In this document: one piece after another, positions 5,560-36,063 of the stretch
Position numbering within the stretch: the stretch's first letter is position 1
Layout: each line of letters begins with the position of its first letter
Assembly: GCF_964213995.1 (NCBI RefSeq)
Contig: NW_027590189.1
Coordinates: 186,001 to 250,000, forward strand
Reading direction: 5' to 3'
DNA: 64,000 nucleotides
Source: Mustelus asterias
Taxonomy: Eukaryota
Made by a program: the position numbers and the translations under genes
Notes under the pieces: model-generated
Told to the model about the DNA's origin: nothing
The model's input: only the letters and a program-made list of their open reading frames with translations
Databases searched by the model: none

Positions 5560-5951
5560 CGGGTGTGAAAGTGTCCTATTCATTCCACAGGAGCCTATTG
5601 CGCAGGCGCAGTACTATATCTGGAGCGTGCGCAGTGTCACTTTGCCCGGAGCCCTATGAATGCGGGAGCGGCTTTTTTCAGAGGGTGAGTCAGTGGGGCT
5701 GCGGGAGAAATGTAGCCGGGAGTCGGGGTAGGGAGGGAGCTATGGCTTCACAAACATCCGCTGTAGGCCGCACGGCCCGAATAAGACCCTGCAGGTCCCG
5801 GGTTTACAGCTCCCAGGCTTTTATCCCGGGAACAGGCCCAGGTTATCGGCCGCCATCTTGTTTCAGCGGGGAAGGAGAGCGCATGCGCTGCTGTCGGTGG
5901 CGGGTCACAATGGGCGTGGTTTCAGGGGCTGGTTCAGAACCTCTGTCTTCA
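5560..5951 (+). promoter_or_regulatory. CpG-rich promoter / first exon of the 7382 ZNF gene
   Basis: tgcgcaggcgca, gcgcatgcgc (NRF1-like), gccgccatctt (YY1); ends in ctctgtcttca, the exon-1 sequence that precedes the donor in paralogs. Confidence 0.6.
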
Positions 5952-5960
5952 GAGGGACAA

Positions 5961-6196
5961 TAGAATCATAGAAACCCTACAGCACAGAAAGAGGCCATTC
6001 GGCCCATCGAGTCTGCACCGACCACAATCCCACCCAGGCCCTACCCCCATATCCCTCCATATTTTACCCGCTAATCCCTCTAATTTACGCATCCCAGGAC
6101 ACTAAGGGGCAATTTTTTTAGCATAGCCAATCGACCTAACCCGCACATCTTTGGACTGTGGGAGGAAACCGGAGCACCCAGAGGAAACCCTCGCAG
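5961..6196 (-). mobile_element. HE1-type SINE, 5'-truncated, nested in the 5' end of a Tx1 fragment
   Basis: catagaaaccctacag tail; agaggg on both sides (5951 and ~6197). Confidence 0.85.
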
Positions 6197-6604
6197 AGAG
6201 GGGCGGGTCGGGATGGTGACCTCCTCGTGAACCTGCTCCTGGGCCTGGCGAAGCGCTCCATTTATAGGTCCAGGCAGCAGACGATCGAGGGGGCCGTCCA
6301 TCCTGACTGTCTGCCCCTCTACCGTGGCTACGTTCGCGGCCAGGTGTCCCTGGAGAGGGAACATGCGATGTCCATGGGCGCGGTTGACGCCTTCCACCCC
6401 CGTTGGGCACTGCAGGGGTTGGGGTGTGTTATCGACCCGAATAATCACATTATGATTTGATGTTTTTAAGTTTCCTTTGTACTTTGATTTTTGTTCGGGC
6501 TGCTCCCCCTCCTTTTGGGGAGCTGCTCCTTTTGGGGAGCTGCCCCTTTTACTTTGTCCTGATTTAACTTGAGTTTGTTTATTTGGTTTGACCTTAAAAG
6601 AGGC
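6197..6604 (+). mobile_element. Tx1-clade (L1/Tx1) LINE 3' fragment
   Basis: GDLLVNLLLGLAKRSIYRSR...SLEREHAMSMGAVDAFHPRW ORF2 C-terminus, then T-rich 3'UTR ending gaccttaaaagaggc. Confidence 0.75.
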
Positions 6605-7381
6605 CAACATCTGTGAGTAAAACACTTTCTTTTCTCCCCCTTTCCATTTCTTTTCTCATTCTGGGGGAAATTGGGGAGTTGCAGCAACTGAAGGGAAAGG
6701 AAGTGAATCCAGTCGGTATGTTCCACACATTGTTAGTCCAGTCAGATAGACATATATCTGTCTGGCAGCCTGCATGGAGATTTCCAGCTCTCTGTGTCCA
6801 GGACAGGAAGCAGTGAGCATAGATCTATCAATCAGCACCTTCAGGAGAATTGGGAGGGTGAATATTAGATACAGCAGAGTGAGAATGGAGGGAGAGTGTG
6901 TGGGATGGAGATTTGCAGCTCTTGGGGAATGAGAGAGGAAATAATGTTCCATAGAAACTAGAATTGTCTGTTCTGAATTTCTATCCTGTACTGACAGTAA
7001 TAACCTTTGTAAACTCCTTTTACAGGATATCAGAAGTTGAGGATTTTACAGACAGAAATCTCAAACCAAACATCACATCAACATCTGACAGAGTCACTCA
7101 ATTCATCGGGAGCTGAATATCTTGGGTCTTTGTATCCAGAAGGAAAAATGTTTCTCTGTTCTGTTGGCTTTAGCAGTCTTTAAACATCAGTGTGACTGGA
7201 ACAGGACTCACACACACACACAAAATCAACTGAGATTTTCCCATGCAGTGACTGTGGAAAGAGCCTCCCAGTTACAGAGCCTGAAAAAATATTGCCCCAT
7301 CACAGCAGGGCACTATAATATTGTTCTGTGTGAGACTTCAACTGATGGTCAAACCTGGAGCAACACAAGGACACCTGCCCC

Positions 7382-8212
7382 ATGGAGAAACCGTGGAAAT
7401 GTGGGGACTGTGGGAAGGGTTGCAAAACCCCCTCTGAGCTGCAAATTCATCGACGTATTCACACTGGAGAGAAGCCGCACACCTGTTCTGTGTGCGGGAA
7501 GGGATTCACTCGGTTATATTATCTGCAGCGACATCGGCTGGTTCACACTGGAGAAAGAGCGTTCATCTGCTTTGAGTGTGGGAACGGATTCGCTCATTTA
7601 CCCGATCTGCAGAGACACCAGCGCGTTCACACTGGAGAGAGACCATTCATCTGCTTGGTGTGTGGGAAAGGATTTATGCAGTTATCCAACCTGTCAAAAC
7701 ACAAAGTCACTCACACCAATGAGAGACCCTTGAAGTGCTCTGACTGTGGAAATGGTTTCAAAAGCTCTCGGGAACTGATGATCCACCAGCGCATTCACAC
7801 TGGGGAGAGACCGTTCAGCTGCTCTCACTGCACAAAGACATTTAGAACATCATCCCACCTGCGGGAGCACCAGCGAATTCACACCAGGGAGAGACCATTC
7901 ACCTGCTCTGTGTGTGGGAAGGGATTCACTCATTCATCCAGCCTGCTGAGTCACAATCTCACTCACACTCAGGAGAGACCCTTTAAATGCTCTGACTGTG
8001 GCAGTGGTTTCAAAAGTCCTCGGGATCTGGTTATCCACCAGCGCATTCACACTGAGGAGAGACCATTCAGCTGCTCTCACTGCACAAAGAGATTTAGAAC
8101 GTCATCAAACCTGCAGGAACACCAGCGAGTTCACACTGGGGAGAGACCGTTCACCTGCTGTGTGTGTGGGAAGGGATTCACTCAGTCATCCAGCCTGCGG
8201 AGACACCAATGA
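7382..8212 (+). CDS. C2H2 zinc-finger protein, 9 complete fingers plus a 10th truncated by an Arg>stop change
   Basis: [12 protein letters not shown] start with TGE(K/R)P linkers; upstream donor 6613, exon ~6802-6857, acceptor ttttacag at ~7025. Confidence 0.85.
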   Translation: MEKPWKCGDCGKGCKTPSELQIHRRIHTGEKPHTCSVCGKGFTRLYYLQRHRLVHTGERAFICFECGNGFAHLPDLQRHQRVHTGERPFICLVCGKGFMQLSNLSKHKVTHTNERPLKCSDCGNGFKSSRELMIHQRIHTGERPFSCSHCTKTFRTSSHLREHQRIHTRERPFTCSVCGKGFTHSSSLLSHNLTHTQERPFKCSDCGSGFKSPRDLVIHQRIHTEERPFSCSHCTKRFRTSSNLQEHQRVHTGERPFTCCVCGKGFTQSSSLRRHQ

Positions 8213-8634
8213 GTTCACAAGTGATGACAGGGGTTGAATTCTGCTGTTATTGCTGCTGTTAATCACATCCAGGACTGAACCATGTTCATTCTGACAGTTG
8301 GTGAAGTGGGAGGGTCGAAGGATTTCTTTTTGCTGGACTGGACAGTCTCACGACTTTGCTTCCAGTGGGCTGATGCTCTTTGAGCCTGGGAGAGCACATT
8401 TCCACTGAAATGATCCACAAGAGCTGATGAAGGACATTTATTTTATCCTGGATAGTAAATAGTGTTTTTCCTACCACTACAGGTAGGTCTAAAATAAATA
8501 CAGAAAGGACTGCAAAAATGCATTAGGTCTGGCAACATTTATGGAGAGAGAAACAGTGTTAATATTTCACACTACTGGATTGGGAATCAATCTAGTAAAT
8601 CTCCTCTGAACTGTTTCCATGGTATTTATAAAAT

Positions 8635-8947
8635 GGGGCAGCACAGTGGTTAGCACTGCTGCCTCACAACGCTAGGGACCCAGGTTCAATTCCAGCCTGG
8701 GTCACTGTCTGTGTGGAGTTTGCACATTCTCCCTGTGTCTGCGTGGGTTTCCTCCGGGTGCTCCGGTTTCCTCCCACAGTCCAAAGATGTGTGGGTTAGG
8801 TTGATTTGGCCGTGTTAAATTGACCTTTAGTGTCAGGCGGACTGGCTGGAGTAAATGCATGTGGTTATGGGAATAGGGCCTGGGTGGGATGGTGTTTGGT
8901 ACAGACTCGATGGACAGAACGGCCTCTGTCTGTACTGTAGGGATTCT
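8635..8947 (+). mobile_element. HE1-type SINE
   Basis: Same head, core and tail as other copies. Confidence 0.85.
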
Positions 8948-9402
8948 CCAATCCTTTGTTTAATAGGAGACAAAAACTGCAGCCCCTATTCAAGATGCAG
9001 TTCCAGCAACGCCCTGTATAACTGAAGCATAACATCTTTACTTCAATGTTCAATTTCTCTCAGAATAAAGGATTGCATTCCATATGTAAGAATTTTGATT
9101 TGTTTGAACTAAGATTTATGGGTTCACTTGTTTACAACAACCTCCCTAATCATAACTCACCCAGGTTCCAGTGACTTAACCATATGGCAAGAAAGAACAC
9201 TTTAAATGGTGAATTCAGAAAGTTTATTCACCATTAAAAATGTAACAAGTCAGAAAGATTTAAAAAAGTAAAGTATCGATCAACAGTAAAGGAGAAAGCT
9301 TAACTTTAACTTCTCTCCATCCCTCTCAGACCAGTACATGAAGTGGTGGCACTGAAAACACGGATAACTTGTAAAATCAACAGCTCCCAACACCTCTCTG
9401 TA

Positions 9403-9663
9403 GGACACAGTGGTTCGCACTGCTGCCTCACAGCGCCAGAGACCCGGGTTTGAGTTCTGCCTTTGGTCACTGTCTGTGCAGAGTCTGTATATTCCCCCTG
9501 TCTGTGTGGGTTTTCTCCCACAGACCGAAGGACTTGCTGGTTAGGTACATTGAGCATGCTAAATTCTCCCTCAGTTTACCCGAACAGGCGCCAGAGTGGC
9601 GACTAGGGGATTTTCAGAGTAACTTCATTGCAGTGTGAATGTGTGACACTAATAAATAAACTT
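9403..9663 (+). mobile_element. tRNA-derived SINE, second subfamily (tail gtaacttcattgcagtg..aataaataaac)
   Basis: HE1-like head with a different tail; absent from the paralogous segment at ~41860. Confidence 0.75.
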
Positions 9664-9990
9664 AAAAAAACCTTGAACTTTTAAAAACTTCTGCCAAATT
9701 GGTTTCTCGAATCCCCTTTTTTATACTTTCAGAATGTAGAAAGCCCAGCTCAGCCAATTGTTGGGAATTAACCAATTGGTCTATAACTTGTCAATAATGA
9801 AACTGGTTTGGTTTTTAGCTAGTTGCACAAATTGTCTGAATTTTAAGACAATTCTTTCTCTCAACCGATATCTCTTAGCTTGGGGGAGCCTGAGTGTTGA
9901 CCAATAATTGGTTAACATCAGTCATTCAATGTTGAGACATCTTGAACAGGAGCTGATTCATTCCCTCCAGTCAATGTTAACAATGTTTTA

Positions 9991-10290
9991 AAGTTTATTT
10001 ATTAGTGTCACAAGTAGGCTGACATTAACACTGCAATGAAGTTACTGGGAAAATCCCCCTAGTCGCAACACTCCGGCATCTGTTCGGGTTCACTGAGGGA
10101 GAATTTACCATCGTCAATCCACCTAACCAGCACGTCCTTTGGACTGTGGGAACAAACTGGAGCACCCAGAGGAAACCCACGCAGACACGGGTGAGAACGT
10201 GCAGACTCCGCATAGTCACCCAAGCCGGGAATTGAACCCAGGTCCCTGGCACTGTGAGGCAGCAGTGCTAACCACTGTGGCACCGCACCA
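9991..10290 (-). mobile_element. tRNA-derived SINE, second subfamily
   Basis: Reverse complement of the 9403 type. Confidence 0.75.
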
Positions 10291-10559
10291 CGCTAACAAG
10301 TCTTGTTATCTGTTTTTTTTCTATTCTGTTGGCCTCAGAAGGGAACATTTTATAATTCCCACAGCATTTTAAACATTCTTTATATCTTTATAATTCTAAA
10401 CGTTATAAACTTTTGTGTTCAAATTTACATTTCCAGCCTAACAACTGTATTAATGAATCATTTATTCTTTAATTGTCTCTCAATTCAGGCTGTCCATTTA
10501 ACTAATCTCCTGCTTTACAATTGTGGGAACTTCAGTCACAGATAAGGTCGTCAAATGCA

Positions 10560-11110
10560 TTGTTAAAAGCAGGATGTTCTTTATATAAATAAATAACAAA
10601 GTTTAAAAATCATTGGCAAACAAAAGGAAACAGGAGCATTGGAACCAGCCTGGACTTGCAACTGAAAGCCCGCCCAAAGCCCACACGTGCTCAGAAGGGA
10701 GAGAGGTTGAGAAGAACACTCTGTAACACTTCTCCTCCCCTTAAATTTCAATCCCCCATCAGGACAGAAATACAACAAAGTAATGTCTTTAACAATACGG
10801 AAGTCTGTCAGGAGCTTTGTGGTTGCATTGCGACCTGTACAATACCTCTGGTAAATCTTGTAATGGTGTTTCTGGAATGGGAGGTGAAGAGGTAGTTTGA
10901 GAATCTGTACATGAACATTCCTCTTCCACTCCCACAGCAGAGTCAACTGGCAAAGCTGGAACCATTTCCTGGTGAACATCCACAGCAGCATGACCCTCTG
11001 CCATGTTCTCAGTAACAGGTTGTTGACTCTGAAACTGTTCCTGACTCGGGGTCACACCGCAAGCAAATATGGTCTTAGTGGCTATGCTTAAAATTTCCAC
11101 ATTTAACTGG
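10560..11110 (-). mobile_element. Gypsy-like LTR retrotransposon remnant (integrase tail, PPT, start of 3' LTR)
   Basis: ORF ends PEVLYRSQCNHKAPDRL (LRRSxRxRKPPDRL-type tail), followed on minus by PPT taaggggaggagaag (10743-10729) and TGTTACA at 10728. Confidence 0.5.
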
Positions 11111-11544: not shown

Positions 11545-14541
11545 TCAGTACCACTTACCCGCCTGATCCCCATAACCCTTAATTCCCTTACCGATCAGGA
11601 ATCCATCCATCCGCACTTTAAACATATTCAGCGAGGTAGCCTCCACCACCTCAGTGGGCAGAGAATTCCAGAGATTCACCACCCTCTGGGAGAAGAAGTT
11701 CCTCCTCAACTCTGTCTTAAACCGACCCCCCTTTATTTTGAGGCTGTGTCCTCTAGTTTTAACTTCCTTACTAAGTGGAAAGAATCTCTCCGCCTCCACC
11801 CTATCCAGCCCCCGCATTATCTTATAAGTCTCCATAAGATCCCCCCTCATCCTTCTAAACTCCAACGAGTACAAACCCAATCTCCTCAGCCTCTCCTCAT
11901 AATCCAAACCCCTCATCTCCGGTATCAACCTGGTGAACCTTCTCTGCACTCCCTCCAATGCCAATATATCCTTCCTCATATAAGGGGACCAATACTGCAC
12001 ACAGTATTCCAGCTGCGGCCTCACCAATGCCCTGTACAGGTGCATCAAGACATCCCTGCTTTTATATTCTATGCCCTTCGCAATATAGGCCAACATCCCA
12101 TTTGCCTTCTTGATCACCTGTTGTACCTGCAGACTGGGCTTTTGCGTCTCATGCACAAGGACCCCCAGGTCCCTTTGCACAGTAGCATGTTTTAATTTGT
12201 TTCCATTGAGATAGTAATCCCATTTGTTATTATTTCCTCCAAAGTGTATAACCTCGCATTTCTCAACGTTATACTGCATTTGCCATATCCTCGCCCACTC
12301 ACTCAGCCTGTCCAAATCTCTCTGCAGATCTTCTCCGTCCTCCACACGATTCACTTTTCCACTTATCTTTGTGTCGTCTGCAAACTTTGTTACCCTACAC
12401 TCCGTCCCCTCCTCCAGATCATCTATATAAATGGTAAACAGTTGCGGCCCGAGTACCGATCCCTGCGGCACGCCACTAGTTACCTTCCTCCAACCGGAAA
12501 AACACCCATTTATTCCGACTCTTTGCTTCCTGTCGGATAGCCAGTCCCCAATCCACTTTAACACACTACCCCCAACTCCGTGTGCCCTAATCTTCTTCAG
12601 CAGCCTTTTATGGGGCACCTTATCAAACGCCTTTTGGAAATCCAAAAACACCGGTTCTCCTCCATCAACCGCCCTAGTCACATCTTCATAAAAATCCAAC
12701 ATGTTCGTCAAGCACGACTTTCCCCTCATGAATCCATGCTGCGTCTGATTGATCGAACCATTTCTATCCAGATGCCCTGCTATCTCCTCTTTAATAATGG
12801 ATTCCAGCATTTTCCCTACTACAGACGTTAAGCTGACCGGCCTATAGTTACCCGCCTTTTGTCTCCTTCCTTTTTTAAACAGCGGCGTAACATTAGCCGT
12901 TTTCCAATCAACCAGCACTACCCCAGAATGCAACGAGTTTTGATAAATAATCACTAACGCATCCTCTATTACCTCTGACATTTCTTTCAATACCCTGGGA
13001 TGCATTCCATCCGGACCCGGGGACTTGTCCACCTTCAGTCCCATTAGTCTACCCAGCACTGCCTCTCTGGTAACATTAATTGTATTAAGTATTTCTCCTG
13101 CTGCCAACCCTCTATCGTTAATATTTGGCAAACTATTTGTGTCCTCCACCGTGAAGACCGACACAAAAAACTTATTTAAAGACTCAGCCATATCCTCATT
13201 TCCCACTATTAACTCCCCCCTCTCGTCCTCCAAGGGTCCAACATTCACTCTAGCCACTCTATTCCTTTTTATATATTTATAAAAACTTTTACTATCATTT
13301 TTTATATTAATTGCTAGCCTAGCTTCATAGTCTATCCTTCCTTTCTTTATCGCTTTCTTAGTCTCTCTTTGTTGTTTCTTAAATTTTTCCCAATCACTTG
13401 TTTCTCCACTATTTTTGGCCACTCTGTACGCAGCTGTTTTTATTTTAATACTCTCCTTTATTTCCTTCGTTGTCCACGGCTGGTTCTCCCTTTTCTTACA
13501 ATCCTTGTTTTTTGCTGGAATATATTTTTGCTGAGAACTGAAAAGGATCTCCTTAAAAATCCTCCACTGTTCCTCAGCTATCCTACCTGCCAGCCTGCTC
13601 TCCCAGTCTACCTTAGCCAATTCATCCCTCATCCTATCATATTTCCCTCTGTTCAAACAGAGGACACTGGTTTGGGACCAAACTTTCTCCTCTTCCATCT
13701 GAATCAGAAATTCGACCATATTGTGGTCACTAGACCCAAGAGGGTCCTTCACAATAAGATCCTTAATTCGACCTACCTCGTTACACAATACCAGATCCAA
13801 AATAGCTTGTTCCCTCGTCGGTTCCGTAACATGCTGTTCAAGGAAACTATCCCGACAGCATTCTAAGAACTCTTCCTCCATTCCACCCTTACTGACTTGA
13901 GTCTGCCAGTCAATGTGCATGTTGAAGTCCCCCATGATTATTGCCGTTCCGTTTTTACACGCATCCCTTATCTGCTTGTTTATAGCCCTCCCTACCTCAA
14001 CATTATTATTTGGGGGCCTATATACCACACCTACTAGTGTCTTTCTCCCTCTACTATTCCTCATCTCTACCCATAATGATTCCACGTTTTGTTCCTCAGA
14101 GCCTATGTCATCCCTCAGTACTACCCTGATATTATCTCTTATTAATAGCGCGACCCCACCACCTTTTCCTTCCTGTCTATTCTTCCTAAACGCCTGATAC
14201 CCCTGGATATTCATCTCCCAGTCCTGGTCACCTTTCAGCCACATTTCTGTAATGGCCACTAGATCGTACCCACTTGTGCTGATTTGCACCATCAACTCAT
14301 TTACCTTGTTCCGAATGCTTCGTGCATTCAGGCAAAGTGTCCTTATTCCAGCTTTTATCTGGACCCGCTTTGATGAGTCGCGAACACCCTCTCCCTCTAC
14401 TCCCTTTTCTAAATTACCGCCTTCATTCACTTGCACCCTCTCCTCTACCATTAATTTTGTAATTCCCCTTTCCCCTGCATCCTCCCCCCCATCAATTAGT
14501 TCCTTGATCCTGGTCAACTCTTCTAGCTCCCCTCCCCCCAA
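11545..14541 (-). CDS. CR1 ORF2: APE endonuclease + reverse transcriptase
   Basis: 998-codon open frame: CLNARSI, AITEMWL, VVYRPP, MGDFN, SSDHN (APE); KSPGPDG, NYRPVSL, FLDFQKAFD, GVPQGSVLGP, KFADD (RT). Apparent ~3-residue loss at EPV^FLDF. Confidence 0.95.
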   Translation of the reverse strand: MGGGELEELTRIKELIDGGEDAGERGITKLMVEERVQVNEGGNLEKGVEGEGVRDSSKRVQIKAGIRTLCLNARSIRNKVNELMVQISTSGYDLVAITEMWLKGDQDWEMNIQGYQAFRKNRQEGKGGGVALLIRDNIRVVLRDDIGSEEQNVESLWVEMRNSRGRKTLVGVVYRPPNNNVEVGRAINKQIRDACKNGTAIIMGDFNMHIDWQTQVSKGGMEEEFLECCRDSFLEQHVTEPTREQAILDLVLCNEVGRIKDLIVKDPLGSSDHNMVEFLIQMEEEKVWSQTSVLCLNRGKYDRMRDELAKVDWESRLAGRIAEEQWRIFKEILFSSQQKYIPAKNKDCKKRENQPWTTKEIKESIKIKTAAYRVAKNSGETSDWEKFKKQQRETKKAIKKGRIDYEARLAINIKNDSKSFYKYIKRNRVARVNVGPLEDERGELIVGNEDMAESLNKFFVSVFTVEDTNSLPNINDRGLAAGEILNTINVTREAVLGRLMGLKVDKSPGPDGMHPRVLKEMSEVIEDALVIIYQNSLHSGVVLVDWKTANVTPLFKKGRRQKAGNYRPVSLTSVVGKMLESIIKEEIAGHLDRNGSINQTQHGFMRGKSCLTNMLDFYEDVTRAVDGGEPVFLDFQKAFDKVPHKRLLKKIRAHGVGGSVLKWIGDWLSDRKQRVGINGCFSGWRKVTSGVPQGSVLGPQLFTIYIDDLEEGTECRVTKFADDTKISGKVNRVEDGEDLQRDLDRLSEWARIWQMQYNVEKCEVIHFGGNNNKWDYYLNGNKLKHATVQRDLGVLVHETQKPSLQVQQVIKKANGMLAYIAKGIEYKSRDVLMHLYRALVRPQLEYCVQYWSPYMRKDILALEGVQRRFTRLIPEMRGLDYEERLRRLGLYSLEFRRMRGDLMETYKIMRGLDRVEAERFFPLSKEVKTRGHSLKIKGGRFKTELRRNFFSQRVVNLWNSLPTEVVEATSLNMFKVRMDGFLIGKGIKGYGDQAGKWY

Positions 14542-14546
14542 CCTAT

Positions 14547-15480
14547 CTAGTTTAAATTCTCCCCAGTAGCCTTAGCCAACCTACCGGCCAGGATATTGGT
14601 CCCCGTGTGATTCAAGTTCCACCCGTTTTTTGTACACAGATCACCCCTGCCCCTAAAGAGGTCCCAATGGTCCAGGAACCTGAATCCCTGCCCCCTGCAC
14701 CAGTCCCTCAGCCACACATTCATCCTCCACCTCACTCCATTCCTGCCCTCACCTTCCCGTGGCACAGGCAGTAATCCTGAGATTACTACCTTTGCTTTCC
14801 TCTTTCTCAGCTGTCTCCCTAATTCCCTGTACTCCTTTTTCATGACCCCTTCTCCCTTCCTACCCACATCAGCGGTACCAATATGTACCGCTACCTCAGG
14901 CTCCTCTCCCTCCCACCTCAGGATTTCCGGGACGCGACGAGCGACATCCTGGATCCCGGCCCCAGGGAGGCAGACCACCATGCGAGAATCCCGCCTACCT
15001 CCGCAGAAACGCCTCTGTCCCCTTCACCATCGAGTCCCCGATTAATACCGCCTTCCTCTTTTCCTTAGCCCTCTGAGTTACAGGGCTGGACTCCACTGCG
15101 GAGACACGGCCACTGCTGCTTCCCCCAGGCGGGCTGTCCCCCCCAGCAGTACTCAAGCAGGAGTACTTGTTGTGCAGGGGCAAATCCACCGGGGTGCTCT
15201 CAACCACCCTAGCCTTACCCTTCCTGGCCGTCACCCACTTGGCCTCCTCCCGTGGCCCTGGTGTGACCACCTGATGATAGCTCTTGTCTATCACCTCCTC
15301 ATTCTCCCTCATCAGCCTAAGATCCTCGAGCTGCAGTTCCAGCTCCCTAACACGGTCCCTCAGGAACCGCAGCTCGACACACCCCTCACAGATGTGGATG
15401 TCCGGGAGGCCAGATGCCTCCAGGACCTCCCACATCCTACACTGGGAACAGCACACTGGTTTCACACTCATACTGGACAC
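14547..15480 (-). CDS. CR1 ORF1: Zn-binding/coiled-coil + SGNH esterase-like domain, split by one frameshift near 15015
   Basis: CSQC..HICEGC, RVRELELQLEDLR, LIGDSMV then VCLPGAGIQDV, VHIGTAD, FLDHW; frame offset fits a 2-bp loss in GTDRRF. Confidence 0.85.
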
Positions 15481-17330: not shown

Positions 17331-18173
17331 TCACTCGTGAATTTGCTGGTGTCTCAGCAGCTGGGATGAAACTCTGAATCCCTTCCCACACAGAGAGCAG
17401 GTGAATGGTCTCTCTCCGGTGTGAACTCGCTGGTGTGTCCGCAGGCTGGATGAGTTAGTGAATCCCTTCTCACACTTCGGGCAGGTGAATGGCCTCTCTC
17501 CGGTGTGAACTCGCTGGTGTGTCTGCAGACTGGATGAGGCAGTAAATCCCTTCCCACACTGAGAGCAGGTGAATGGTCTCTCCCCAGTGTGAACTCGCTG
17601 GTGTGTTTGCAGGCTGGAAGACTTGGTGAATCCTTTCTCACACTGAGGGCAGGTGAACGGCCTCTCTCCGGTATGAACTCGCTGGTGTTTCTGCAGGGTG
17701 GATAATTGAGTGAATCCCTTCCCACACACAGTGCAGGTGAATGGCCTCTCCCCAGTGTGAACTCGCTGGTGTGTCCGCAGGGTGGATAACTGACGGAATC
17801 CCTTCCCACACACAGGGCAGGTGAATGGTCTCTCCCCAGTGTGAACTCGCTGGTGTCTCTGCTGGTTGGATAACTGACTGAATTTCTTCCCACACACGCA
17901 GCAGGTGAATGGCTTCTTCCCAGTGTGAACTCACTGGTGTTTCTGCAGGCTGGATGACTGAGTGAATCCCTTCCCACACACAGAGCAGGTGAATGGCCTC
18001 TCCCCAGTGTGAACTAGTTGGTGTGTCCGCAGTTCAGATGACTGAGTGAATCCCTTTCCACACACAGAGCAGCTGAACGGCCTCTCCCCAGTGTGACTGC
18101 GTCGATGAATTTCCAGCCGAGATAGGCACATGTATCCCTTCCCACAGTCCCCACATTTCCACGGTTTCCCCAT
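17331..18173 (-). pseudogene. 10-finger C2H2 ZNF with one in-frame TGA (17933-17931) in finger 3
   Basis: ORFs 17931..18173 and 17331..17897 are in the same frame, separated by CAC CAG TGA (HQR>HQ*). Confidence 0.85.
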
Positions 18174-18221
18174 GGTTCGGGTCCTTGTGACTCTGTAGTT
18201 TAAACAATCAGTTAAATCTCA

Positions 18222-18329
<108 letters not shown>

Positions 18330-20414: not shown

Positions 20415-21130
20415 TGCTGCAAGTCAACAATTTCCCCCAGAATGAGAAACAAAATGGAAAGGGTGAGAAAAGAAAGTGTTTTACTCACAGATGTTGAAGA
20501 CAGAAGGAAGTTTGAGTCTGTCTGAAGCTCAATCTTCATTCAGAGAAAGAGCAGCAGCAGCTTCGCTGGGCAGGAATGAGCAGTTGAACAAGCTCATTGT
20601 CCAACTTCCGCATTCAGACACTGTGGGAGCTCTGATTGGCTGGAGGATCAGAGGCCTTCCGGTCTTCCAGAGTTCCCATTGGTCAATCCCCCGCAGACAG
20701 ACAATGAGGGGCGGAGCCCCACGTAGGGATGGGCGGGCCTGTGCCCGCCAGCCGCGCTGAGCTGTTGTCCAATTGGAAAGGCTGGAAGACCCAGACAGAC
20801 AATGGTCAGTGCGCCGGCTTTGTCCCGGGCCCCGCCCCACACCCGCACATGCGCATTCCCCCAAAACCCGCACATGCGCACTTCTGATTCACTTCCGCTC
20901 ACCAGCTCTGGCAATGGGAAGACTTGGAGGACCGGAAAGACCGTGGTCCTCCAGCCAATCAGAGCGCGGGCTTTGTGTGCATGAAGATTGAGCTTCAGAC
21001 AGACTCAAACTTCCTTCAGTCTCAACCTAAAAGAGGCCAACATCTGTGAGTAAAACACTTTCTTTTCTCATTCTGGGGGTAATTGGAGAATTGCAACAAC
21101 TGAAGGAAAAGGAAGTGAATCCAGGGAGAG
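20415..21130. promoter_or_regulatory. Palindromic bidirectional promoter with two mirror-image first exons
   Basis: 20415-20550 is the reverse complement of 20980-21110 (donors GTGAGT at 20488- and 21046+); 20630-20675 is the reverse complement of 20912-20965; cacatgcgca x2, GC boxes and CCAAT in the centre. Confidence 0.75.
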
Positions 21131-22735: not shown

Positions 22736-23332
22736 CTCTGTGTCCAGGACAGGAAGCAGTGAGCATGGATCTGTCAATCAGCATCAATCAGCACCTTCAG
22801 GAGAATTGGGAGGGTGAATATTAGATACAGCAGAGTGAGAATGGAGGGAGAGTGTGTGGGATGGAGATTCACAGCTTTTGGGGAATGAGAGAGGAAAGAA
22901 GGTTCTATAGAAACTAGAATTGTCTGTTCTGAATTTCTATCCTGTACTGACACTGATGACTTTTGTGAACTTGTTTTACAGGATATTGAAAGAGGAATCA
23001 CAGGCCAAAATCTCAAACGTCACGTCTCGATCTGACAGAGTCATATTCCATGGGAGCTGAATATCATCGGCCTTTGAATCTAGAAGGAGAAATGATTGTC
23101 CAGTCTGTTGATTTGAAAAGATTTCAAACATCAGTGTGACTGCAAAAGCACCAACACTCTGCCACACACGAGTGAGAGTGTTCCAGTGCACGGACTAAAG
23201 AGCTTTAACCAGTTACACAGCCTGAATAACTATCACACCATTCACAGCGGGGAGAGACGGTACCCGTGTTCTGTGTGTGGACGAGGCTTCAACTGATTGT
23301 CCACCCAAGAGAGAGGCAAGGACACCTGCACC

Positions 23333-24511
23333 ATGGAGAAACCATTCAAATGTGGGGACTGTGGGAAGAGATACAGAGCCCCATCTCTGCTGGAAGCTCA
23401 TCGGCGCAGCCACACTGGGGAGAGGCCGTTCACCTGCTCTCAGTGTGGGGAGGGATTCACTCTGTCATCCAGCCTGCAGTCACACCAGCGAGTTCACACT
23501 GGGGAGAGACCGTTCACCTGCTCTCAGTGTGGGAAGGGATTCACTCGGTCATCCAGCCTGCAGTCACACCAGCGAGTTCACACTGGAGAGAGGCCATTCA
23601 CCTGCTCTCAGTGTGGGAAGGGATTCACTCAGTCATCCCACCTTCAGAGACACCAGCGAGTTCACACTGGGGAGAGGCCATTCACCTGCTCTCAGTGTGG
23701 GAAGGGATTCACTCAGTTATCCCACCTGCGGATACACCAGCGAGTTCACACTGGGGAGAGGCCATTCACTTGCTCTCAATGTGGGAAGGGATTCACTCAG
23801 TCATCCCAGCTGCAGATACACCAGCGAGTTCACACTGGGGAGAGGCCGTTCACCTGCTCTCAGTGTGGGAAGGGATTCACTCGGTCAATCAACCTGCTGA
23901 CTCACCAGCGAGTTCACACTGGGGAGAGGCCATTAATCTGCTCGCAGTGTGGGAAGGGATTCACTCAGTTATCCAGCCTGCAGACACACCAGCGAGTTCA
24001 CACTGGGGAGAGGCCATTAATCTGCTCGCAGTGTGGGAAGGGATTCACGCAGTTATCCAGCCTGCAGACACACCAGCGAGTTCACACTGGGGAGAGGCCA
24101 TTAATCTGCTCGCAGTGTGGGAAGGGATTCACGCAGTCATCCCACTTGCAGACACACCAGCGAATTCACACTGGGGAGAGGCCATTCACCTGCTCTCAAT
24201 GTGGGAAGGGATTCATTGAGTTATCCAGCCTGCAGAAACACCAGCGAGTTCACACTGGGGAGAGGCCATTCACCTGCTCTCAGTGTGGGAAGGGATTCAC
24301 TCAGTCATCCAGTCTGCGGACACACCAGCGAGTTCACACTGGGGAGAGGCCGTTCACCTGCTCTCAGTGTGGGAAGGGATTCACTCAGTTATCCAGCCTG
24401 CGGACACACCAGCGAGTTCACATTGGGGAGAGGCCATTCATCTGCTCTCAGTGTGGGAAGGGATTCACAGTTTCATCCCAGCTGCTGAGACATCAACAAG
24501 TTCACGAGTGA
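23333..24511 (+). CDS. C2H2 zinc-finger protein, 14 highly homogenised fingers
   Basis: accATGG at 23333 ([10 protein letters not shown]); 84-bp repeats of [28 protein letters not shown]; upstream exon ~22748-22813, acceptor at 22981. Confidence 0.9.
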
Positions 24512-25810: not shown

Positions 25811-25817
25811 AGAATAT

Positions 25818-29212: not shown

Positions 29213-30705
29213 GTTAAGATATACAGCATGTTGTATATTGTAATATTCTAAATGGGATATTATGAAGGTGATACATTTCCATTTCTTCCTGTTTTTGTTC
29301 CAAAAATCTAATTTCATAATTCCTATGTTTTAGAAATAAGAATTAGTTGCAAGAATTGCTTTTAAAAAATGGAAAACCTGGGTTGAGAATCTGACAAGAA
29401 CACCCTCAAGGAATTCGCAGTCACAAAGCATGACCCATGTTGGTTTAAGAAGTCAAAACTCGAGAAGTAAGAACTGTAAAAGGTCAGCTGGATCTTTTAG
29501 CTGGAGACATTGGGTCTGACAATTATTGTACTGTTTTTGTTAGGTGAATTCTTCATGCAGACCTCAGGGAAAAAGGGTTTAGTTTTGAAGCTAAATCTGT
29601 CAGATATTCCACCTGGTCTCTGTTACCATGGGGATATGTGATTCAGGGTGGAGCCTCGGTTAGAATTAGACCATAAGATATCGGAGCAGAATTAGGCTAT
29701 TCGGCCCATCAAATCTGCTGTGCCATTCGATCATGGCTGATAAATCTCAATCCCATTCTCCTGCCTTTTCCCCGGAACCTTTGAGTCCTTTCCAATCAGT
29801 GACCTGGTTCCAGCGGACAGTCTGCAGTTAGCTTGGAAGCCACCAGTTGTGGGACCAGGAGCTGTGAACCAGCTGTGGGACGAGAAGCCTAGAGGACCGT
29901 TGGAAACCAGGGGTGTTTCCAACATTTAAATGCCTCAGCAAGAATGCAGTGAAGCCCATGTTTAGACTGAGGAGTCCACAGTTTGAGAGCTTAAAGGAAA
30001 ATTGGAGGCTTGTTTAGTGAAAAGATAATGGATGGACTCCCATAAACTCTTGGCCTCTTTTTAGGTCAAACCGAATAAACAAACTCAAATTACGTCAGGA
30101 CAAAGTAAAAGGGGCAGCTCCCCAAAAGGAGGGGGAACAGCCCGAACAAAAATCAAAGTACAAAGGAAACTTAAAAACATCAAATTAAAATGTGATTATC
30201 AGGGTCGATAACGCACCCCAACCCCTGCGGTGCCCAGCGGGCACGGAAGGCATCAACCGCGCCCGTGGACACCGCATGCTCCCTCTCCAGGGACACCTGG
30301 CTGTGAATGTAGCCGCAGTAGAGGGGCAGACAGTCAGGATGGACGGCTCCCTCGATCGCCCGCTGCCTGGGGAGAATATCTGGTGTACTGGGGAGAATTA
30401 AAGTGAATTGTGGAGAGCTTTGACATACCTTTGGGATGGTCCTAGGACCAGAAGTGAATGAAACTTCAAGATATTGTTAAGTATAAAGAAACTCTTGAGG
30501 TAAAAAAATAGAACTCGGTTTATATCATAAATCTTTATTGAGTGTAGTATTCAATTTGTAGTGTTGTCTTTTAAAATTTTATTTAAACATACAGTAAAGT
30601 TTGTTTTTGTTTAAAAATGTGGAATCTTGTGATGTAATTCTTTCAGTTAATCACCGGGTGTTCGAATTTCTCTGCAAACGTTAACAGTCCTGACCGGGAT
30701 CGCAA
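29213..30705 (+). mobile_element. Probable solo LTR, interrupted by a Tx1 fragment
   Basis: TGTT start, AT-rich 3' part, ends gaccgggatcgcaa (cf. gatcgtaaca end at 31925 on minus); no coding signal. Confidence 0.35.
30053..30370 (-). mobile_element. Tx1-clade LINE 3' fragment (same family as 6197)
   Basis: Reverse complement closely matches 6270-6604, ending gacctaaaaagaggc|caa. Confidence 0.75.
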
Positions 30706-31516
30706 AAATTCACACAGTGTTTCAAAACAAATCGAAGAAAAAGATGGTTTTTCTCCTTCAGTCCAAATGTTACACATGAAGAGACCCTCTTCTGGTATCT
30801 CCAATAATTTGTTGCTTTGAGCAATTCTTTTCATGGAACAATCAGATAATTGATGACTGAAAATGGAACTAATTGTATCCCTTTAAAGCAGGAGGGCGAT
30901 CGCCCGGCACAGAGGGGAATTCGGGATTTCTCCCACAGACCAATTGACAGGGATTCTACCCTCCAACCACCTGAAGTGAATTCTTTACATGAATCATCCG
31001 TGCCAGTGCAGTTATCAACTTGCAGTTTGGCTGATCAGAAAATGCTTTGTTGCTGATTTTCCTTGTGTTAGGAAGTGACAGTGCCAAGGCCAGATCTTGT
31101 TTCCTCCTTGATCGGGATGTAACCCGTGTCCACATCGCCACTTCATTCTTCCACTGGTTGTATGGTTCAGACTCCGAGAGCATCAGCAGGTAATCAGACC
31201 CTGACAATTCCCACTGCCTTTCAGTCATTTCTCACAAAAGCTGCTGGGATTGTAAGCTTCTGTCTGAAATATACTTTCTTTTAGTTTCCAACCTTCACCA
31301 TTAGACAAGCATTTTCTGTTACCATGTTATAATCCTGACAGCCTTGGGGTGGAGTCAATCTTTATTTGGTATAGATTTGTTCACAGAATCAAACATTACA
31401 GGCTCAACTCTGACTCCAAGCTATATTAGTGAGTCCCACTTTTTACCTGCTCATTATAACTATCTCATCAGTGCCCTCCATCTGAATAAACTTAACCTCT
31501 ATTGGTATAATTAACA
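30706..31516 (-). mobile_element. Internally deleted Ty1/copia (GalEa-like) element: 5' LTR, PBS, gag start, RNase H end
   Basis: LTR TGTTAA..ATAACA 31516-31325, PBS TGGTAACAGAAAATG, gag SESEPYNQWKNEVAMWTRVT..KQDLALALSLP, and HQLSDCSMKR..KLLEIPEEG. Confidence 0.65.
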
Positions 31517-31549
31517 GCCACAGTCAGAGCATCCAAAAGATCACTAATG

Positions 31550-31745
31550 GGTGTGACTGCCATGGTGTCTCAGCAGCTTGGGTGAACAAGTGAATCCTTT
31601 CCCACACACTGAGCAGGTGAATGGTCTCAGTTTGGAAACGAAGGGAAAATAACATTTCAGGCAGAAGCTTCCAATCTGGTAGTTTTTATGAGAAATCGCT
31701 GAAAGTGAGTGGGAATTATCAGGGTCTCTTCCCCAGTGTGAATTC
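31550..31745 (-). pseudogene. Single terminal ZNF finger remnant split by a 96-bp insert
   Basis: [22 protein letters not shown]; linker HTGK..RP interrupted at 31629-31727. Confidence 0.7.
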
Positions 31746-31769
31746 CCTAATGTTCCAGTAGGTTGTTTG

Positions 31770-31897
31770 GTCATCAGGTGAGAAGGAGCAGCGCGCTGAA
31801 AGCTCGTGATTCGAAATAAACCTGTTGGACTTTAACCAGGTGTTGTGAGACGTCTTACTGTGCCCACCCCAGTCCAACACCGGCATCTCCACATCAT
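31770..31897. mobile_element. Penelope-like terminal fragment
   Basis: gaaggagcagcgcgctgaaagct (degenerate hammerhead-like core) + aaataaacctgttggactttaacc..cggcatctccacatcat. Confidence 0.6.
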
Positions 31898-32216
31898 ATG
31901 CACCAACACCAGACATATCAATGTTGTTACGATCCTCATGGTCACCTTATAATAAACAAATTCCCACAAATCCCAATGGAATAAACAAAGACAATGTTTC
32001 ATTTTAAAAAATTTTTACTTTAAAAATTAATCTAAAATTAACATCACTGAATCATGCATTAAGAAACAGTATTTGAATAGACAGGATAAATTAAACTTTA
32101 AAACGCTCAGACAATAAAAACAGGTTCCACAAAATCACAAACATTCCCCCCTCAGTATATTTGGCTCTAATTCCAGTTCCAGAGTCCACAACTCTCTGAA
32201 TTTCCCAGGGGGGGGA

Positions 32217-32549
32217 AATCATAGAAATCATAGAAGCCCTACAGTGCAGAAGGAGGCCATTCGGCCCATCGAGTCTGCACCGACCACAATCCCACCCAGG
32301 CCCTACCCCCACATATTTACCCGCTAATCCCGCTAACCTACACATCTCAGGAGTCTAAGGGGCAATTTTTAACCTGGCCAATCAACCTAACCCGCACATC
32401 TTTGGACTGTGGGAGGAAACCGGAGCACCCGGAGGAAACCCACGCAGACACGAGGAGAATGTGCAAACTCCACACAGTGACCCGAGCCGGGAATCGAACC
32501 CGGGATCCTGGAGCTGTGAAGCAGCAGTGCTAACCACTGTGCTACCGTG
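32217..32549 (-). mobile_element. HE1-type SINE, full length
   Basis: (catagaaat)2 tail to cacggtagcacagtggttagc head; nearly identical to 45467 and 46450 copies. Confidence 0.9.
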
Positions 32550-33155
32550 GTTAGCACTGCTGCTTCACAGATTTACCCTTAACCGTTATGGGTAACCGTG
32601 AGATTTACCCTTAACCGTGGTTAAGGGTAAAGATATGGCACCCGGTGGAGACAGAGACTAGCACTAACTTTGACTACTGTGAAGAAGGTGCAGTCCCTGC
32701 CCATTGACTTGGTCAGTTCTAATAAATCAGTTAATCATACCATCCAAACAAGGATGTTTGATCTCGAGACCACAATCATTTTATACATATACTGTGGCAG
32801 CTACTTCTTGCACCACAACTGATACAGTTTAAACCAAATAGAGTTCAAAGTTTTCTGTAGTACTCGCTAAATAAACATCTTCCTCAGACGGTGCTGAGTC
32901 TGATATCTGTGGCTGCCACACAGGTAACTCATCCACTCTCCAACCAGTCGATCAACTCTTCGCTTGAAAAACCTCAGTCTTGTCTGAATCTCTAGATTCA
33001 GTGGCAGAGAATGACGGAGATTGTCTGGATCAGAGATTCCATATTTTTGGGATCAGGGAGACCACCTGCATTCCAGGATCATCCATTGGACCATTTGGCA
33101 AGCAGGCAATGCCATCACAGGAAACACCCCTCAGCTCCTTGTCCAGGTTGTCAGG

Positions 33156-33422
33156 TCAGCTCCTGGAGCAGTTGAGTTTGATGGAGTAGGCGAGGTCAGC
33201 CAGGTAGGCCAGGAAGTTGAGGACGAGCAGGGAGGTGAAGAGGAGCAGCTGGTTCCGCCGGCAGTCCACCCGCGAGCACTCGTCCAGCCAGTCGGCGTGG
33301 CGGGTCAGGTGGAGACCCCAGGCCAGCAGCACGGCCAGCTGGAGCAGGGCGGCCAGGCTGCTGGAGGCCAGCAGGAGGCGGCTGAGGGGCAGCTGGCCGC
33401 AGGCCCGGCACTCCCCAACCAT
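33156..33422 (-). pseudogene. MYADM: MYADM-like (MARVEL domain) C-terminal coding fragment
   Basis: GECRACGQLPLSRLLL..LLAW..C..C.RNQLLLFTSLLVLNFLAYLADLAYS resembles the MYADM C-terminal MARVEL (GECT..P..FL..LW..LTxxNLLAYxxDLxxS); very GC-rich, N-terminal part absent. Confidence 0.6.
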
Positions 33423-33464
33423 AAAAGAAAGTGTTTTCCTCACGGATGTTGTCCAGAGGAGGAG

Positions 33465-34039
33465 GTTTGAGTCTGTGTGTGAAGTTTGAGTCTGTGGTGA
33501 AGTTTGAGTCTGTGTGTGAAGTTTGAGTCTGTGGTGAAGTTTGAGTCTGTGTGTGAAGTTTGAGTCTGTGGTGAAGTTTGAGTCTGTGGTGAAGTTTGAG
33601 TCTGTGGTGAAGTTTGAGTCTGTGTGTGAAGTTTGAGTCTGTGGTGAAGTTTGAGTCTGTGTGTGAAGTTTGAGTCTGTGGTGAAGTTTGAGTCTGTGTG
33701 TGAAGTTTGAGTCTGTGTGTGAAGTTTGAGTCTGTGGTGAAGTTTGAGTCTGTGTGTGAAGTTTGAGTCTGTGGTGAAGTTTGAGTCAGTGTGTGAAGTT
33801 TGAGTCTGTGTGTGAAGTTTGAGTCTGTGGTGAAGTTTGAGTCTGTGGTGAAGTTTGAGTCTGTGTGTGAAGTTTGAGTCTGTGTGTGAAGTTTGAGTCT
33901 GTGTGTGAAGTTTGAGTCTGTGGTGAAGTTTGAGTCTGTGTGTGAAGTTTGAGTCTGTGGTGAAGTTTGAGTCTGTGGGTGAAGTTTGAGTCTGTGTGTG
34001 AAGTTTGAGTCTGTGGTGAAGTTTGAGTCTGTGGTGAAG
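33465..34039. repeat. Minisatellite, ~31 units of 18/19 bp (gtttgagtctgtg[t]gtgaa)
   Basis: Direct reading; unit matches the single-copy gaagtttgagtctgtctgaag of ZNF exon 1 at ~20507. Confidence 0.95.
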
Positions 34040-34129
34040 CTACAAACAGAAGCTGTTCTGTTTCAAATCAAACTGCGGGACTTGGAAGAAAATGATGGGA
34101 AGAGATTTTGCAAAGTTCCCTCCCCCACT

Positions 34130-34595
34130 CCCTCAGCTGGCAGACCAGCGCGCAGGCGCAGAGAGCGCTGCTGAGTTGAGCTGTCCGGAGCAGGCGCAGA
34201 GAGCGCTGCTGAGCCGAGCTGTCCGGAGCAGGCGCAGAGAGCGCTGCTGAGCCGAGCTGTCCGGAGCAGGCGCAGTGCGGCTGCCGCCAGCGGTCGCTCT
34301 CGATCTCTTTTTGGAGCCGCAGCCGCCGTAGAGAGAGGGGGCGGGGGAGATCACCGAGCGGCTTCTCGCTCTGGCCGGAGCCGCCAGCCGGTTGCCTGGA
34401 AACCTTGGCTGGAGGAGGTGCAGGAGGAGGGGAATGGGTGGGGGCGGGGCTCCCGTGTCCGCGCGCCCGGGCCTGCGCACTGAAACCACAGGACGTCACC
34501 GCGGAGCAGACTTATTCTTATTGGCTAATTCACGCGAGGTTCCATTGTGACGTCACAATGCGGAAGTTGGCCAATGAGGTTCAGAGTGAAACTTA
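34130..34595. promoter_or_regulatory. CpG-island bidirectional ZNF promoter
   Basis: NRF1-like gcgcaggcgca, GC boxes, CRE tgacgtca (~34548), ETS cggaagt, CCAAT; exon-1 homologs on both sides. Confidence 0.7.
34152..34276. repeat. 38-bp tandem repeat x3.3 within a CpG island
   Basis: gcaggcgcagagagcgctgctgag(c/t)(c/t)gagctgtccgga. Confidence 0.9.
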
Positions 34596-34683
34596 CTGTT
34601 CCCCCTCCTTTTGGGGAGCTGCCCCCTTTACTTTGGCCTGACTTAATCTGAGTTTGTTTATTTGGTTTGACCTAAAAAAAGGG
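34596..34683 (+). mobile_element. Tx1-clade LINE 3'UTR fragment (88 bp)
   Basis: Matches 6500-6604 and the reverse complement of 30053-30140. Confidence 0.75.
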
Positions 34684-36063
34684 CAACATCTGGGAGGAAA
34701 TCAATGTTTCCCCCTTTCCATTTCCTTTCTCATTCTGGGGGAAACTGGGGACTTGCAGCAACTGATGGGAAAGGAAGTGAATCCAGGGAGACTGCAGACT
34801 CTGAAAACGTTATAGACGAACATCGGAATTAGGAGCAAGACTCGGCCCAGGTATCTTTTTCTTTCTCTCACAAGACATTGACATCCTTTAGCTCCCTCAC
34901 TTTGACATGTTTATATATCTGGCTAATAGGATGGCCTCTTACCCAATGTTCATAATTCAAGGGGGAGTTTTCTCAGGAGAGGGCTAACATTTTAATGAAC
35001 AGTAAATTTGTATGGGAGAGAGATGTGTTTAATGTAGTTACATGGTATATACTATGTTATTTACGATTCCCTATTTCTTGTCTTAAAATATATAGCAGTG
35101 TATCAACATTATCTATTTTCAGTGATGGAAACATTACAACATAGAATAGGCAACTCAGATCCATGCCAACTCTCTGTGAAGCAATTCAGTCAGTCCCATT
35201 CCCTCTCTGTATCCCCATTCCCCTGTGTTTCATGTCACAATGAAATGGATGAGAGTTCCAAAGGAGCTGAGACTGGAGTAGAGTTGATCAATGGCACTGA
35301 GGTGGAAATAGGCGGTCTTGATGATGATGTGGCAATGTGGCTGGAAGCTCAACTTGGGGTGAAATATTTTACCATGGTTGTGAACAGTTTGCTTCAGCCT
35401 CAGACAGTTGCCAGGAAGAGGGAGAGAGTTGCTGGCGAGGGAGTGGAGTTTGTAGTGGGGACTGAAGACAATGGGTACAGTCTTCCCAATGTTTATATGA
35501 AAGAAATTTCTGTTCTTTTAGTACTGGACGTCAGACAAGTCAGGGTGGTGTGTGAGTTGGAGGGGAACTTGAAGGTGATGGTGTTCCCATCTAGTTGCTA
35601 CCCTGGTCCTTCTAGGTGGGTGGAGGTTGAGGGTTTGGGAAACTTTCTGTCAAAGTTCCAATTGAGTTGTCAATGTACAAAATCCCTCTCCTTCACCCTG
35701 ACCTCTCCTACTTCTCTCTGTCTTCTCTCTGTGTCCAGAGTCTTGTGTCCAGACCGTGTGGCAGATTTCCTGCCCTGAAGGATATCAGTGAACCCGCTGG
35801 GTTTTTATGACAATCCAGCAGTTTTCATGATCACTTTTTCCGAGTGCCAGCCCCACAAATGACCAGATTCATTCAGCTCAATTTCACAACCTGACTTTGT
35901 GTTTTTGTGGGTTCTCTCTCACTTCCTTTTTTCTGTTTTACATCAATTTCACAGGGTTTTAGAAGAGGAGGATTTGCAGTTGGGAAACTGAAACCAAATA
36001 TTATATCAAAACCTGATTGAGTTAGCCAATTTATTGTAACCTGAATATCATTGTGTTTTGAAC

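Follow-up and report, generated by a model that had tools for sequence, protein, structure and literature searches.

A 64,000-nt stretch of contig NW_027590189.1 from Mustelus asterias (the window) carries several C2H2 zinc-finger (ZNF) genes, and raises the question of how the 3' ends of one LINE came to lie before the same short sequence in three of them. An earlier note had attributed this to independent insertions of a Tx1-like element with a preference for the 5'-untranslated exon of the family. The reading favoured here, to which a probability of roughly 0.85 is given, is one of many independent insertions by a Tx1-clade LINE, made at fixed nucleotides in a first exon that a large C2H2 family shares, that lies on the promoter side and that is predicted not to code for protein; the position is likely set by a combination of nicking and RNA pairing.

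In the window, CAACATCT stands immediately 3' of a LINE 3' end at 6605, 21038 and 34684, as had been claimed, and the sizes given for the inserts (about 410, 11-13 and 88 bp) are also correct. The longest (6193..6603, +) is a 5'-truncated end of an older subfamily, comprising the end of ORF2 and the 3'UTR, and shares 91% identity with an intact young one. A SINE, presumably HE1-like, is nested in its 5' junction (5960..6192, +), an arrangement repeated in the twin locus L107. The upstream exon end had been thought to survive at 5941; what lies there (5941..5951, +) is an 11-nt match where the exon profile gives no hit, weak evidence for the original 5' flank. On the 3' side, the filled site CCAACATCT and a predicted splice donor, GTGAGT (6613-6618), occupy 6604..6618 (+), followed by an intron predicted from sequence motifs that extends to a conserved acceptor, TTTTACAG (6613..7025, +), and by the C2H2 array of the host gene (7346..8212, +).

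The shortest insert is a stub in the partner gene of a head-to-head pair (21027..21036, +), with a filled site and predicted donor at 21037..21051 (+), an acceptor at 22974-22981 and a C2H2 array at 23297..24511 (+). The third (34596..34682, +), at which about 11 bp of the host site have been lost, precedes a filled site of a second type, GCAACATCTGGGAGG (type II; 34683..34697, +), and an array at 36109..36933 (+). All three inserts have duplicated twins elsewhere, in sets of 5 (that of 6193), 2 and 2 (the single twin of the stub being L175), and their three 5' junctions are mutually different. Empty sites are found at 20496 (-) and 33451 (-), again as described. The former belongs to a first-exon end (20483..20550, -) that holds the older-subfamily site, a young-subfamily site (TCTCTGAATG) near 20546 and a predicted donor at 20488-20483, with a C2H2 array downstream (17331..18314, -); the latter is a variant (CAACATCCGTGAGG; 33437..33451, -) in an exon grown into a tandem repeat. 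The fourth copy, already placed elsewhere by the earlier note, is an off-site 3' fragment at a CCAA site, followed by CCAAGAG (30053..30370, -), and a fifth relative, 77% identical, also lies away from the target (56253-56582, -).

The inserts derive from the 3' part of a LINE of the Tx1 clade. ORF2 matches PF03372 (APE endonuclease) and PF00078 (RT) above cut-off, is 53% identical to Xenopus Tx1L over 824 residues, and groups with Tx1L and with sturgeon and turtle proteins in a clade of 10 rows marked 100*. ORF2 frames of 1304 aa are open, and ORF1 is about 760 aa in young copies; on a decayed copy its zf-CCHC match (E=0.002, 18.5 bits) is below the cut-off of 20.8. Copies show a fixed 3' end, variable 5' truncation and target duplications (13-15 bp) or short deletions; tandem arrays also occur.

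From its position and from donor and acceptor motifs, the target is predicted to be the first exon of a ZNF gene. This exon is predicted to be non-coding, in keeping with the proposed 5'UTR position: as a coding exon (MKIELQTDSNFLLSPTS) it was rejected, many paralogs having stops or shifts and 30 of 33 an exon 2 that closes ahead of the fingers, and the ZNF ORF begins 6 codons before finger 1. A ZNF protein search did not find the shark N-termini. Of 12 matches obtained when looking for processed retrocopies that the predicted mRNA might have left, none was spliced. When an empty paralog was compared with sequencing runs from related organisms (three presumed to be RNA, one DNA), zinc-finger repeats swamped the result, and among the 15 joints listed, with 218 more unlisted, none linked exon 1 to exon 2.

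The older subfamily sits before (C/G)CAACATCTG in this exon. Genome-wide, AAARAGGC directly precedes 238 of 626 exact 21-mer ZNF sites (reversed-pattern controls, 0), so that insertion at the same nucleotide does recur; within 264 kb around the window 9 of 13 sites are filled. Because the base before CAA matches that of the host in all 19 off-site copies that have target duplications, which rule out CAA as element sequence, the element ends in AAGAGG and the cut falls 9 nt before the GT, 1 nt further upstream than the boundary formerly drawn at 8 nt. The 10-mer CCAACATCTG occurs 12,990 times in the genome; fetched junctions of the element with CAACATCTG are of ZNF type or in tandem arrays in 30 of 30 and 10 of 12 cases, the exception being one duplicated pair on C17. 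The proposed preference thus holds as an exact, recurrent site, but the older subfamily is leaky: CAACATCTG follows 173 of 1100 of its 3' ends in the sampled pattern, a count that leaves out stubs under about 27 nt, while the other 927 (84%) are elsewhere, and part of the count reflects host duplication. Its off-site flanks start with CA in 64 of 66 cases, like its own target, and the sampled off-site ends lie at (C/G)CA sites. PMC4494074 calls a family target-specific when more than 20% of its flanks are of one kind of sequence; the share of the older subfamily lies below this value and that of the young subfamily (92/198) above it.

The young subfamily, whose ORFs are intact, inserts before TCTCTCTGAATG, within the same exon but some 50 nt further upstream. 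Among young ends followed by T, to which the denominator of 198 is restricted, 92 precede the exon motif and 29 more precede the element's own copy of that motif, a copy of the host exon being carried at its 5' end. Full-length copies at the target, which had been sought, were found. Of the 15 young 5' ends located, 11 adjoin a ZNF promoter and 4 are preceded by another copy. Off-site flanks read TC in 17 of 17 cases (the first T having been selected), like the subfamily's own target. Dozens of intact, near-identical copies exist, with a median distance of 0.44% in ORF2 and of 19.6% in the host flanks, 1 of 45 pairs being near-identical. The older-subfamily site is shared by a partner element of 1.2-2.5 kb, taken as non-coding since its family has zero Pfam matches across six frames; an Rfam search of this family gave no match. 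This second, younger site and the partner are both absent from the earlier note.

Insertion would very probably proceed by target-primed reverse transcription. Its fixed position is likely explained by an endonuclease that nicks a loose DNA motif and a read-through RNA that likely pairs with the nicked strand. We lean somewhat towards a scheme in which RNA without poly(A) would continue into the host exon, so that ZNF sites would offer its 3' end the best pairing, and an insertion at a new spot would found a subfamily whose target is new but whose endonuclease has hardly changed. Full-length copies are probably transcribed from the ZNF promoter, to judge from where they lie. A donor re-created by duplication, or borne in the 5' end of the element, might also let the host splice the element out; this is rather doubtful, and donor re-creation is absent for most truncated inserts. 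Only tentatively, and as a picture unlikely to hold in full, can one imagine a LINE lineage living in transcription-factor first exons that would be steered by read-through RNA, re-target without a new endonuclease, borrow the host promoter, be spliced out by means of a donor in a decoy first exon, bring tRNA pieces and a partner to the same base, and rewrite roughly one in three of these ZNF genes at the 5' end.

It is extremely unlikely that the filled sites go back to a handful of ancestral insertions, copied along with ZNF genes by duplication or conversion and later trimmed. Duplication is certainly at work, as sets reach 7 members, duplicates make up about 40% of filled junctions, and filled hosts cluster on their tree (32 filled/empty changes, at least 7 forced, versus 42 when shuffled). 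Against this, 87 filled junctions (insert lengths 10 to 7205) fall into 52 conservative 5'-junction classes, giving at least 52 distinct 5' ends, 38 of them singletons, and filled hosts form no single clade; most insertions are therefore separate, and some are later duplicates. Target duplications vary in length, a second, unrelated family occupies the same base, and the 34596 site has an empty near-twin (G000:C157:136198). Spread is largely refuted by the young inserts, which differ by 0.4% where their hosts differ by 20%. The outcome named beforehand as fatal to independent insertion, random 3' flanks and an insert tree mirroring that of the hosts, is absent: flanks are non-random and the relationships among inserts do not track those among hosts (Mantel p=0.19). 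No starred branch of the insert tree forbids one ZNF clade, its bootstrap being still unsettled. It is also very unlikely that the target is part of a transposon beside the ZNF genes. The nearest named relatives, Tx1L and Tx1-Mar, go for transposons (PMC4494074, available part), a sister family in this genome is located in an LTR-like repeat, and exon 1 splicing is predicted from motifs; however, a same-strand C2H2 finger lies within 3 kb in 29 of 35 sites having 3 kb of sequence, a conserved acceptor precedes the first finger, CCAAT and GC boxes are upstream, and the first 100 sites listed all lie within three cluster regions.

What fixes the cut is a separate matter. That protein alone does so, a few ORF2 substitutions having shifted the cut by 50 nt with RNA pairing irrelevant, is a serious possibility, if a doubtful one. 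The Tx1L endonuclease nicks its own target almost exclusively in vitro (PMC1950540, available part), the hairpin loop here is 3 residues shorter than that of Tx1L, most old and young endonucleases (the part of ORF2 compared) differ at about 20 residues, and off-site targets of the older subfamily are weakly similar to the ZNF site upstream (94 of 209 positions matching at -12..-2, 52 expected, p<0.0001), a similarity that equally favours the nicking of a loose motif in the combined reading. Yet L108, at the old ZNF site, and L340, with an old-type flank, hold nearly all young residues; 7 of 240 endonuclease residues separate a young new-site copy from an intact one whose flank is of the old type, and position 239 is the sole residue dividing all young from all old-type copies. 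Moreover, of 7 off-site targets of young copies 6 keep T at -11 from the cut whereas post-cut bases vary, and the first flank base tracks a 3'-end variant (C in 14/15; G in 38/51). A tether, of chromatin or of some bound factor, that keeps the element at open ZNF promoters and leaves it to cut at the nearest tolerated short motif would suit the CCAAT boxes 50-80 nt from both sites, the use of two different sequences in one exon, and two young copies with a ZNF promoter 5' but another TCT site 3'. It is nevertheless improbable, given single-nucleotide precision, the 7-fold lower filling of type II promoters (22/424 versus 238/626) and the finding of hits solely in this exon family among 31 ZNF arrays near the window, whose other promoters were not gone through singly.

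Several described elements invite comparison. The Xenopus laevis element Tx1L (YTX2_XENLA) shares with the shark element its clade, APE endonuclease, RT and target specificity, but the shark specificity loop lacks RDGH, and Tx1L targets the DNA transposon Tx1D (available parts of PMC4494074 and PMC1950540) rather than a host gene first exon. Crocodilian Tx1-Mar and SINEU, as described in PMC4494074, have a leaky preference, two hot spots per target and tandem insertion in common with it, and Tx1-Mar also a non-autonomous partner on the same target and a proposal of flank transcription; Tx1-Mar 5' ends gain snRNA-derived heads, where the shark element has a tRNA-Val head. By the same account the target of Tx1-Mar is a Mariner element, whereas that of the shark element is a Pol II gene family, and the long non-coding partner, the same orientation of both sites and the separate sites of old and young subfamilies are further differences on the shark side; for introns of RING/B-box family genes the paper notes no more than 3 copies of SINEU-1B. 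Keno, Kibi, Koshi and other target-specific families share the Tx1 clade and a multicopy target, and are set apart by the targets described in the available parts of PMC4494074 and PMC4640811 (U2 snRNA genes, microsatellites, 5S, satellites); here the flanks are the ZNF exon or dispersed (C/G)CA and TC sites, not U2 genes, Tx1D, Mariner-N4 or microsatellites. R1, of another clade, inserts in 28S rDNA and is alike in its 14-bp target duplication, target-like off-site insertions and transcripts proposed to include flanking target sequence that anneals; the portions available of PMC2718515 and PMC7265360 describe no site shift within one host exon.

Site-specific LINEs, according to the list in PMC4640811, go for RNA genes, spliced-leader exons, transposons, microsatellites and telomeres. 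To these a protein-coding multigene family would add a new class of target; no such target was found in the literature searched. The old and young subfamilies show an APE-type element on either side of a change of target and so provide a natural comparison of how such a change comes about, one that dozens of intact copies open to direct tests. Should RNA pairing set the site, RNA could be used to re-aim a vertebrate LINE, a prospect relevant to gene-insertion tools. Repression of transposons is widely ascribed to C2H2 zinc-finger families, and an element filling 38% of one exon subtype therefore sits within a possible host defence system.

The exon itself comes in more than one form. The GT donor said to follow the site is present in one promoter subtype and absent at 34684, which reads CAACATCT-GGGAGG; type II sites of this kind number 424 exact copies, and 22 of these are filled even though they lack the GT. 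In some type II genes there is a possible second donor further downstream.

The Tx1-clade LINE of Mustelus asterias shows a real target preference, leaky to strong, for the first exons of zinc-finger (ZNF) genes. This kind of target would be new, and the insertion site has recently shifted within the same exon. The three filled first exons described in an earlier note, in which the 3' end of the element adjoins CAACATCT (6605, 21038 and 34684), are present in the window, as are two empty sites on the minus strand (20496 and 33451) and an off-site copy (30053-30370). A same-strand C2H2 array lies 0.8-2.3 kb downstream of each filled site and of the empty site at 20496. Within a 264-kb region around the window the element occupies 9 of 13 sites, and a C2H2 finger was found no more than 3 kb away at 29 of the 35 sites examined with 3 kb of downstream sequence. 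The ZNF genes are paired head-to-head (20496/21038 and 33451/34684), with about 0.4-1.2 kb between them and a common region of CCAAT and GC boxes. At 33455-34040, an 18-20 bp tandem repeat has expanded from part of a ZNF first exon, with twins on several contigs.

Long copies at the target site carry APE endonuclease and reverse transcriptase (RT) domains. The assignment to Tx1 was borne out by ORF2, which is 53% identical to that of Xenopus Tx1L and joins it in a 100* clade (29 rows picked out of 69 matches); its nearest relative is a stingray protein. The element is about 7.0-7.6 kb in full, with a tRNA-Val-derived head near its 5' end and a 130-nt 3'UTR without a poly(A) tail. An older Tx1 relative at 56253-56582 (minus strand), 77% identical, differs in 3' end and flank. 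Another LINE, at 11545-14571 (minus strand), has a 1008-aa open endonuclease/RT frame and is by eye a candidate CR1-like element.

Across the 3.68-Gb assembly, in which the window is G000:C157:186001-250000, the exact 3'-terminal 16-mer of the older subfamily occurs 1100 times and is followed by CAACATCTG in 173 cases; targeting is leaky. Conversely, AAARAGGC directly precedes 238 of 626 exact 21-mer target sites. This occupancy is not explained by a short core, because the 10-mer CCAACATCTG alone occurs 12,990 times. Junctions of the element with CAACATCTG were ZNF-type or tandem-array in 30 of 30 cases in one sample and in 10 of 12 in another, which took in the only matches from contig C17 among those listed. 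In a second promoter subtype, type II (CAACATCTGGGAGG, lacking the GT donor), 22 of 424 exact copies are filled; this lower filling could mean that the element recognises the subtype less well, or that selection removes inserts for which splicing-out is impossible.

Filled exons might arise by repeated insertion or by duplication of filled hosts. The sample for INDEPENDENCE comprised 87 distinct older-family filled junctions, picked non-randomly from search lists, in which the element measures between 10 and 7205 bases. By 5' junction they form 52 classes, 38 of them singletons, although this clustering over-merges short stubs and later deletions may account for some long junctions. On a host intron-flank tree (139 rows) the filled state requires 32 changes, at least 7 of them forced by starred branches; it is nevertheless more clustered than when shuffled (32 versus a mean of 42 changes), as duplicates predict. 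The insert tree (35 on-site and 34 off-site copies, 330 nt) is star-like, and on-site inserts form one clade in 0 of 200 bootstrap trees, yet no starred branch forbids such a clade. Distances among inserts show no significant correlation with those among their hosts (Mantel p=0.19), in agreement with the independent insertions suggested earlier. The 34596 site has an empty near-twin 84 kb away.

For the young, intact subfamily, host duplication cannot yield the divergence seen: in ten copies with host flanks, the elements are 0.44% apart and the hosts 19.6% (medians). An endonuclease search gave 150 scored matches among 1040 candidates, about 70 with an open frame of at least 1300 aa (hand count). 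Among 20 young copies sampled from small or cluster contigs, median ORF2 divergence is 0.5%. Of the 19 with a defined 3' end, 17 are followed by the exon-1 sequence TCTC..GAATG. Twelve of these occupy a host exon, and the other five stand ahead of the next tandem-array copy; the remaining two of the 19 lie at other TCT sites. Where the old site persists, the 12 host-exon inserts lie 50-54 nt upstream of it. Across the genome, young ends with T as the next base number 198, of which 92 precede TCT..AATG and a further 29 precede the element's own motif variant, many from one short tandem array on contig C89. The young 5' end is a diverged exon copy spanning the new site to the old, followed by a decayed tRNA-Val. 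Each of 15 young 5' ends has a GTGAG at a distance of no more than about 150 nt, but the evidence is weak, the motif being a 5-mer and the copies being related. The flanks of off-site young copies begin TC, with 14-15 bp duplications in 7 of 17 (three of the 17 being older copies). In two young full-length copies (loci L371 and L373) the 5' end adjoins a ZNF promoter but the 3' end adjoins a different TCT site; insertion combined with loss of host DNA is the likely cause.

Off-site older copies define the cut. Seventy ends were taken from contigs C1-C3, of which 66 were analysed (three were unparsable and one was a ZNF site). The first flank base is C in 65, the second A in 64 and the third A in 45, and positions +4 to +10 are weakly target-like (145/462 matches versus 119 expected, p=0.006). 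Duplications of 10-17 bp flank 15 copies; excluding two internal matches and adding one 8-bp case and five from a partner family gives 19 cases. In all 19 the base preceding CA equals the last insert base, which places the true cut 1 nt upstream of the boundary originally drawn. The 11 bases upstream match the ZNF site at 94 of 209 positions, against 52 at random (C/G)CA sites (p<0.0001), which points to loose endonuclease recognition.

[quoted passage not shown] Read-through RNA may pair with the target, as has been proposed for R1 and SART1 (PMC2718515, PMC7265360). Three observations point to such pairing: off-site flanks open with 2-4 bases that repeat the target of the subfamily concerned, the first flank base tracks a 3'-end variant, and two old-type copies, either of which could be recombinant, have a nearly young endonuclease. 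CAACATCAGAGAG is common to the 5' junctions of several old full-length copies with TGTGAG 3' flanks, suggesting that the RNA carries target-like sequence along with it; a start of transcription inside the host exon would produce this pattern. The host is probably harmed little, because exon 1 is predicted to be non-coding and short stubs leave the downstream donor intact.

No retrotransposon whose target is the first exon of a protein-coding gene family, zinc-finger or other, was found in the literature searched, including PMC4494074 (whose supplementary lists of Tx1 targets may affect the novelty of this one), PMC4640811, PMC1950540, PMC7265360, PMC2718515 and bioRxiv 10.64898/2026.06.26.734816; most subscription papers fell outside this scope, and Repbase or Dfam may record the family.

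The old site is also used by a non-coding partner family of 1.24, 1.87 or 2.5 kb (129 exact 3' ends), with 15 of 30 sampled ends there, often in tandem arrays (G000:C71:13.57-13.58 Mb; C140:0.32-0.34 Mb; L122:284-1525). A target-like 14-mer precedes 30 of 30 sampled partner 5' ends and is exactly CAACATCTGTGAGT in 27, which restores a predicted donor. As a rule this family re-creates a predicted donor on the upstream side of its inserts, but only about 5 of 32 Tx1 events examined do so. The partner has an internal 620-bp repeat and forms arrays of 6-11 units with the target 14-mer between units; in arrays on C19 and C26 the target sits inside the unit.

At the ZNF site, tRNA pieces are attached 5' of short Tx1 stubs, and whole tRNAs with trailers precede 13-18 nt stubs or truncated copies. 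The latter joints (loci L161, L172, L191, L109 and L095; G000:C157:86766, 87751 and 148201) were likely made by template switching. At L017:1853-2536 an off-site truncated Tx1 has two U2 snRNA copies (Rfam) directly 5'. In a sister Tx1 family (L387-L394, on G000 contigs C1, C2, C3, C11, C12, C14, C22 and C69) most copies have an intact ORF2, and the 3' end differs. The flanks of this sister family start with CT(A/G)CCTGATGA in 6 of 8 cases, five continuing into one LTR-like repeat, so that this family likely has a target of its own.
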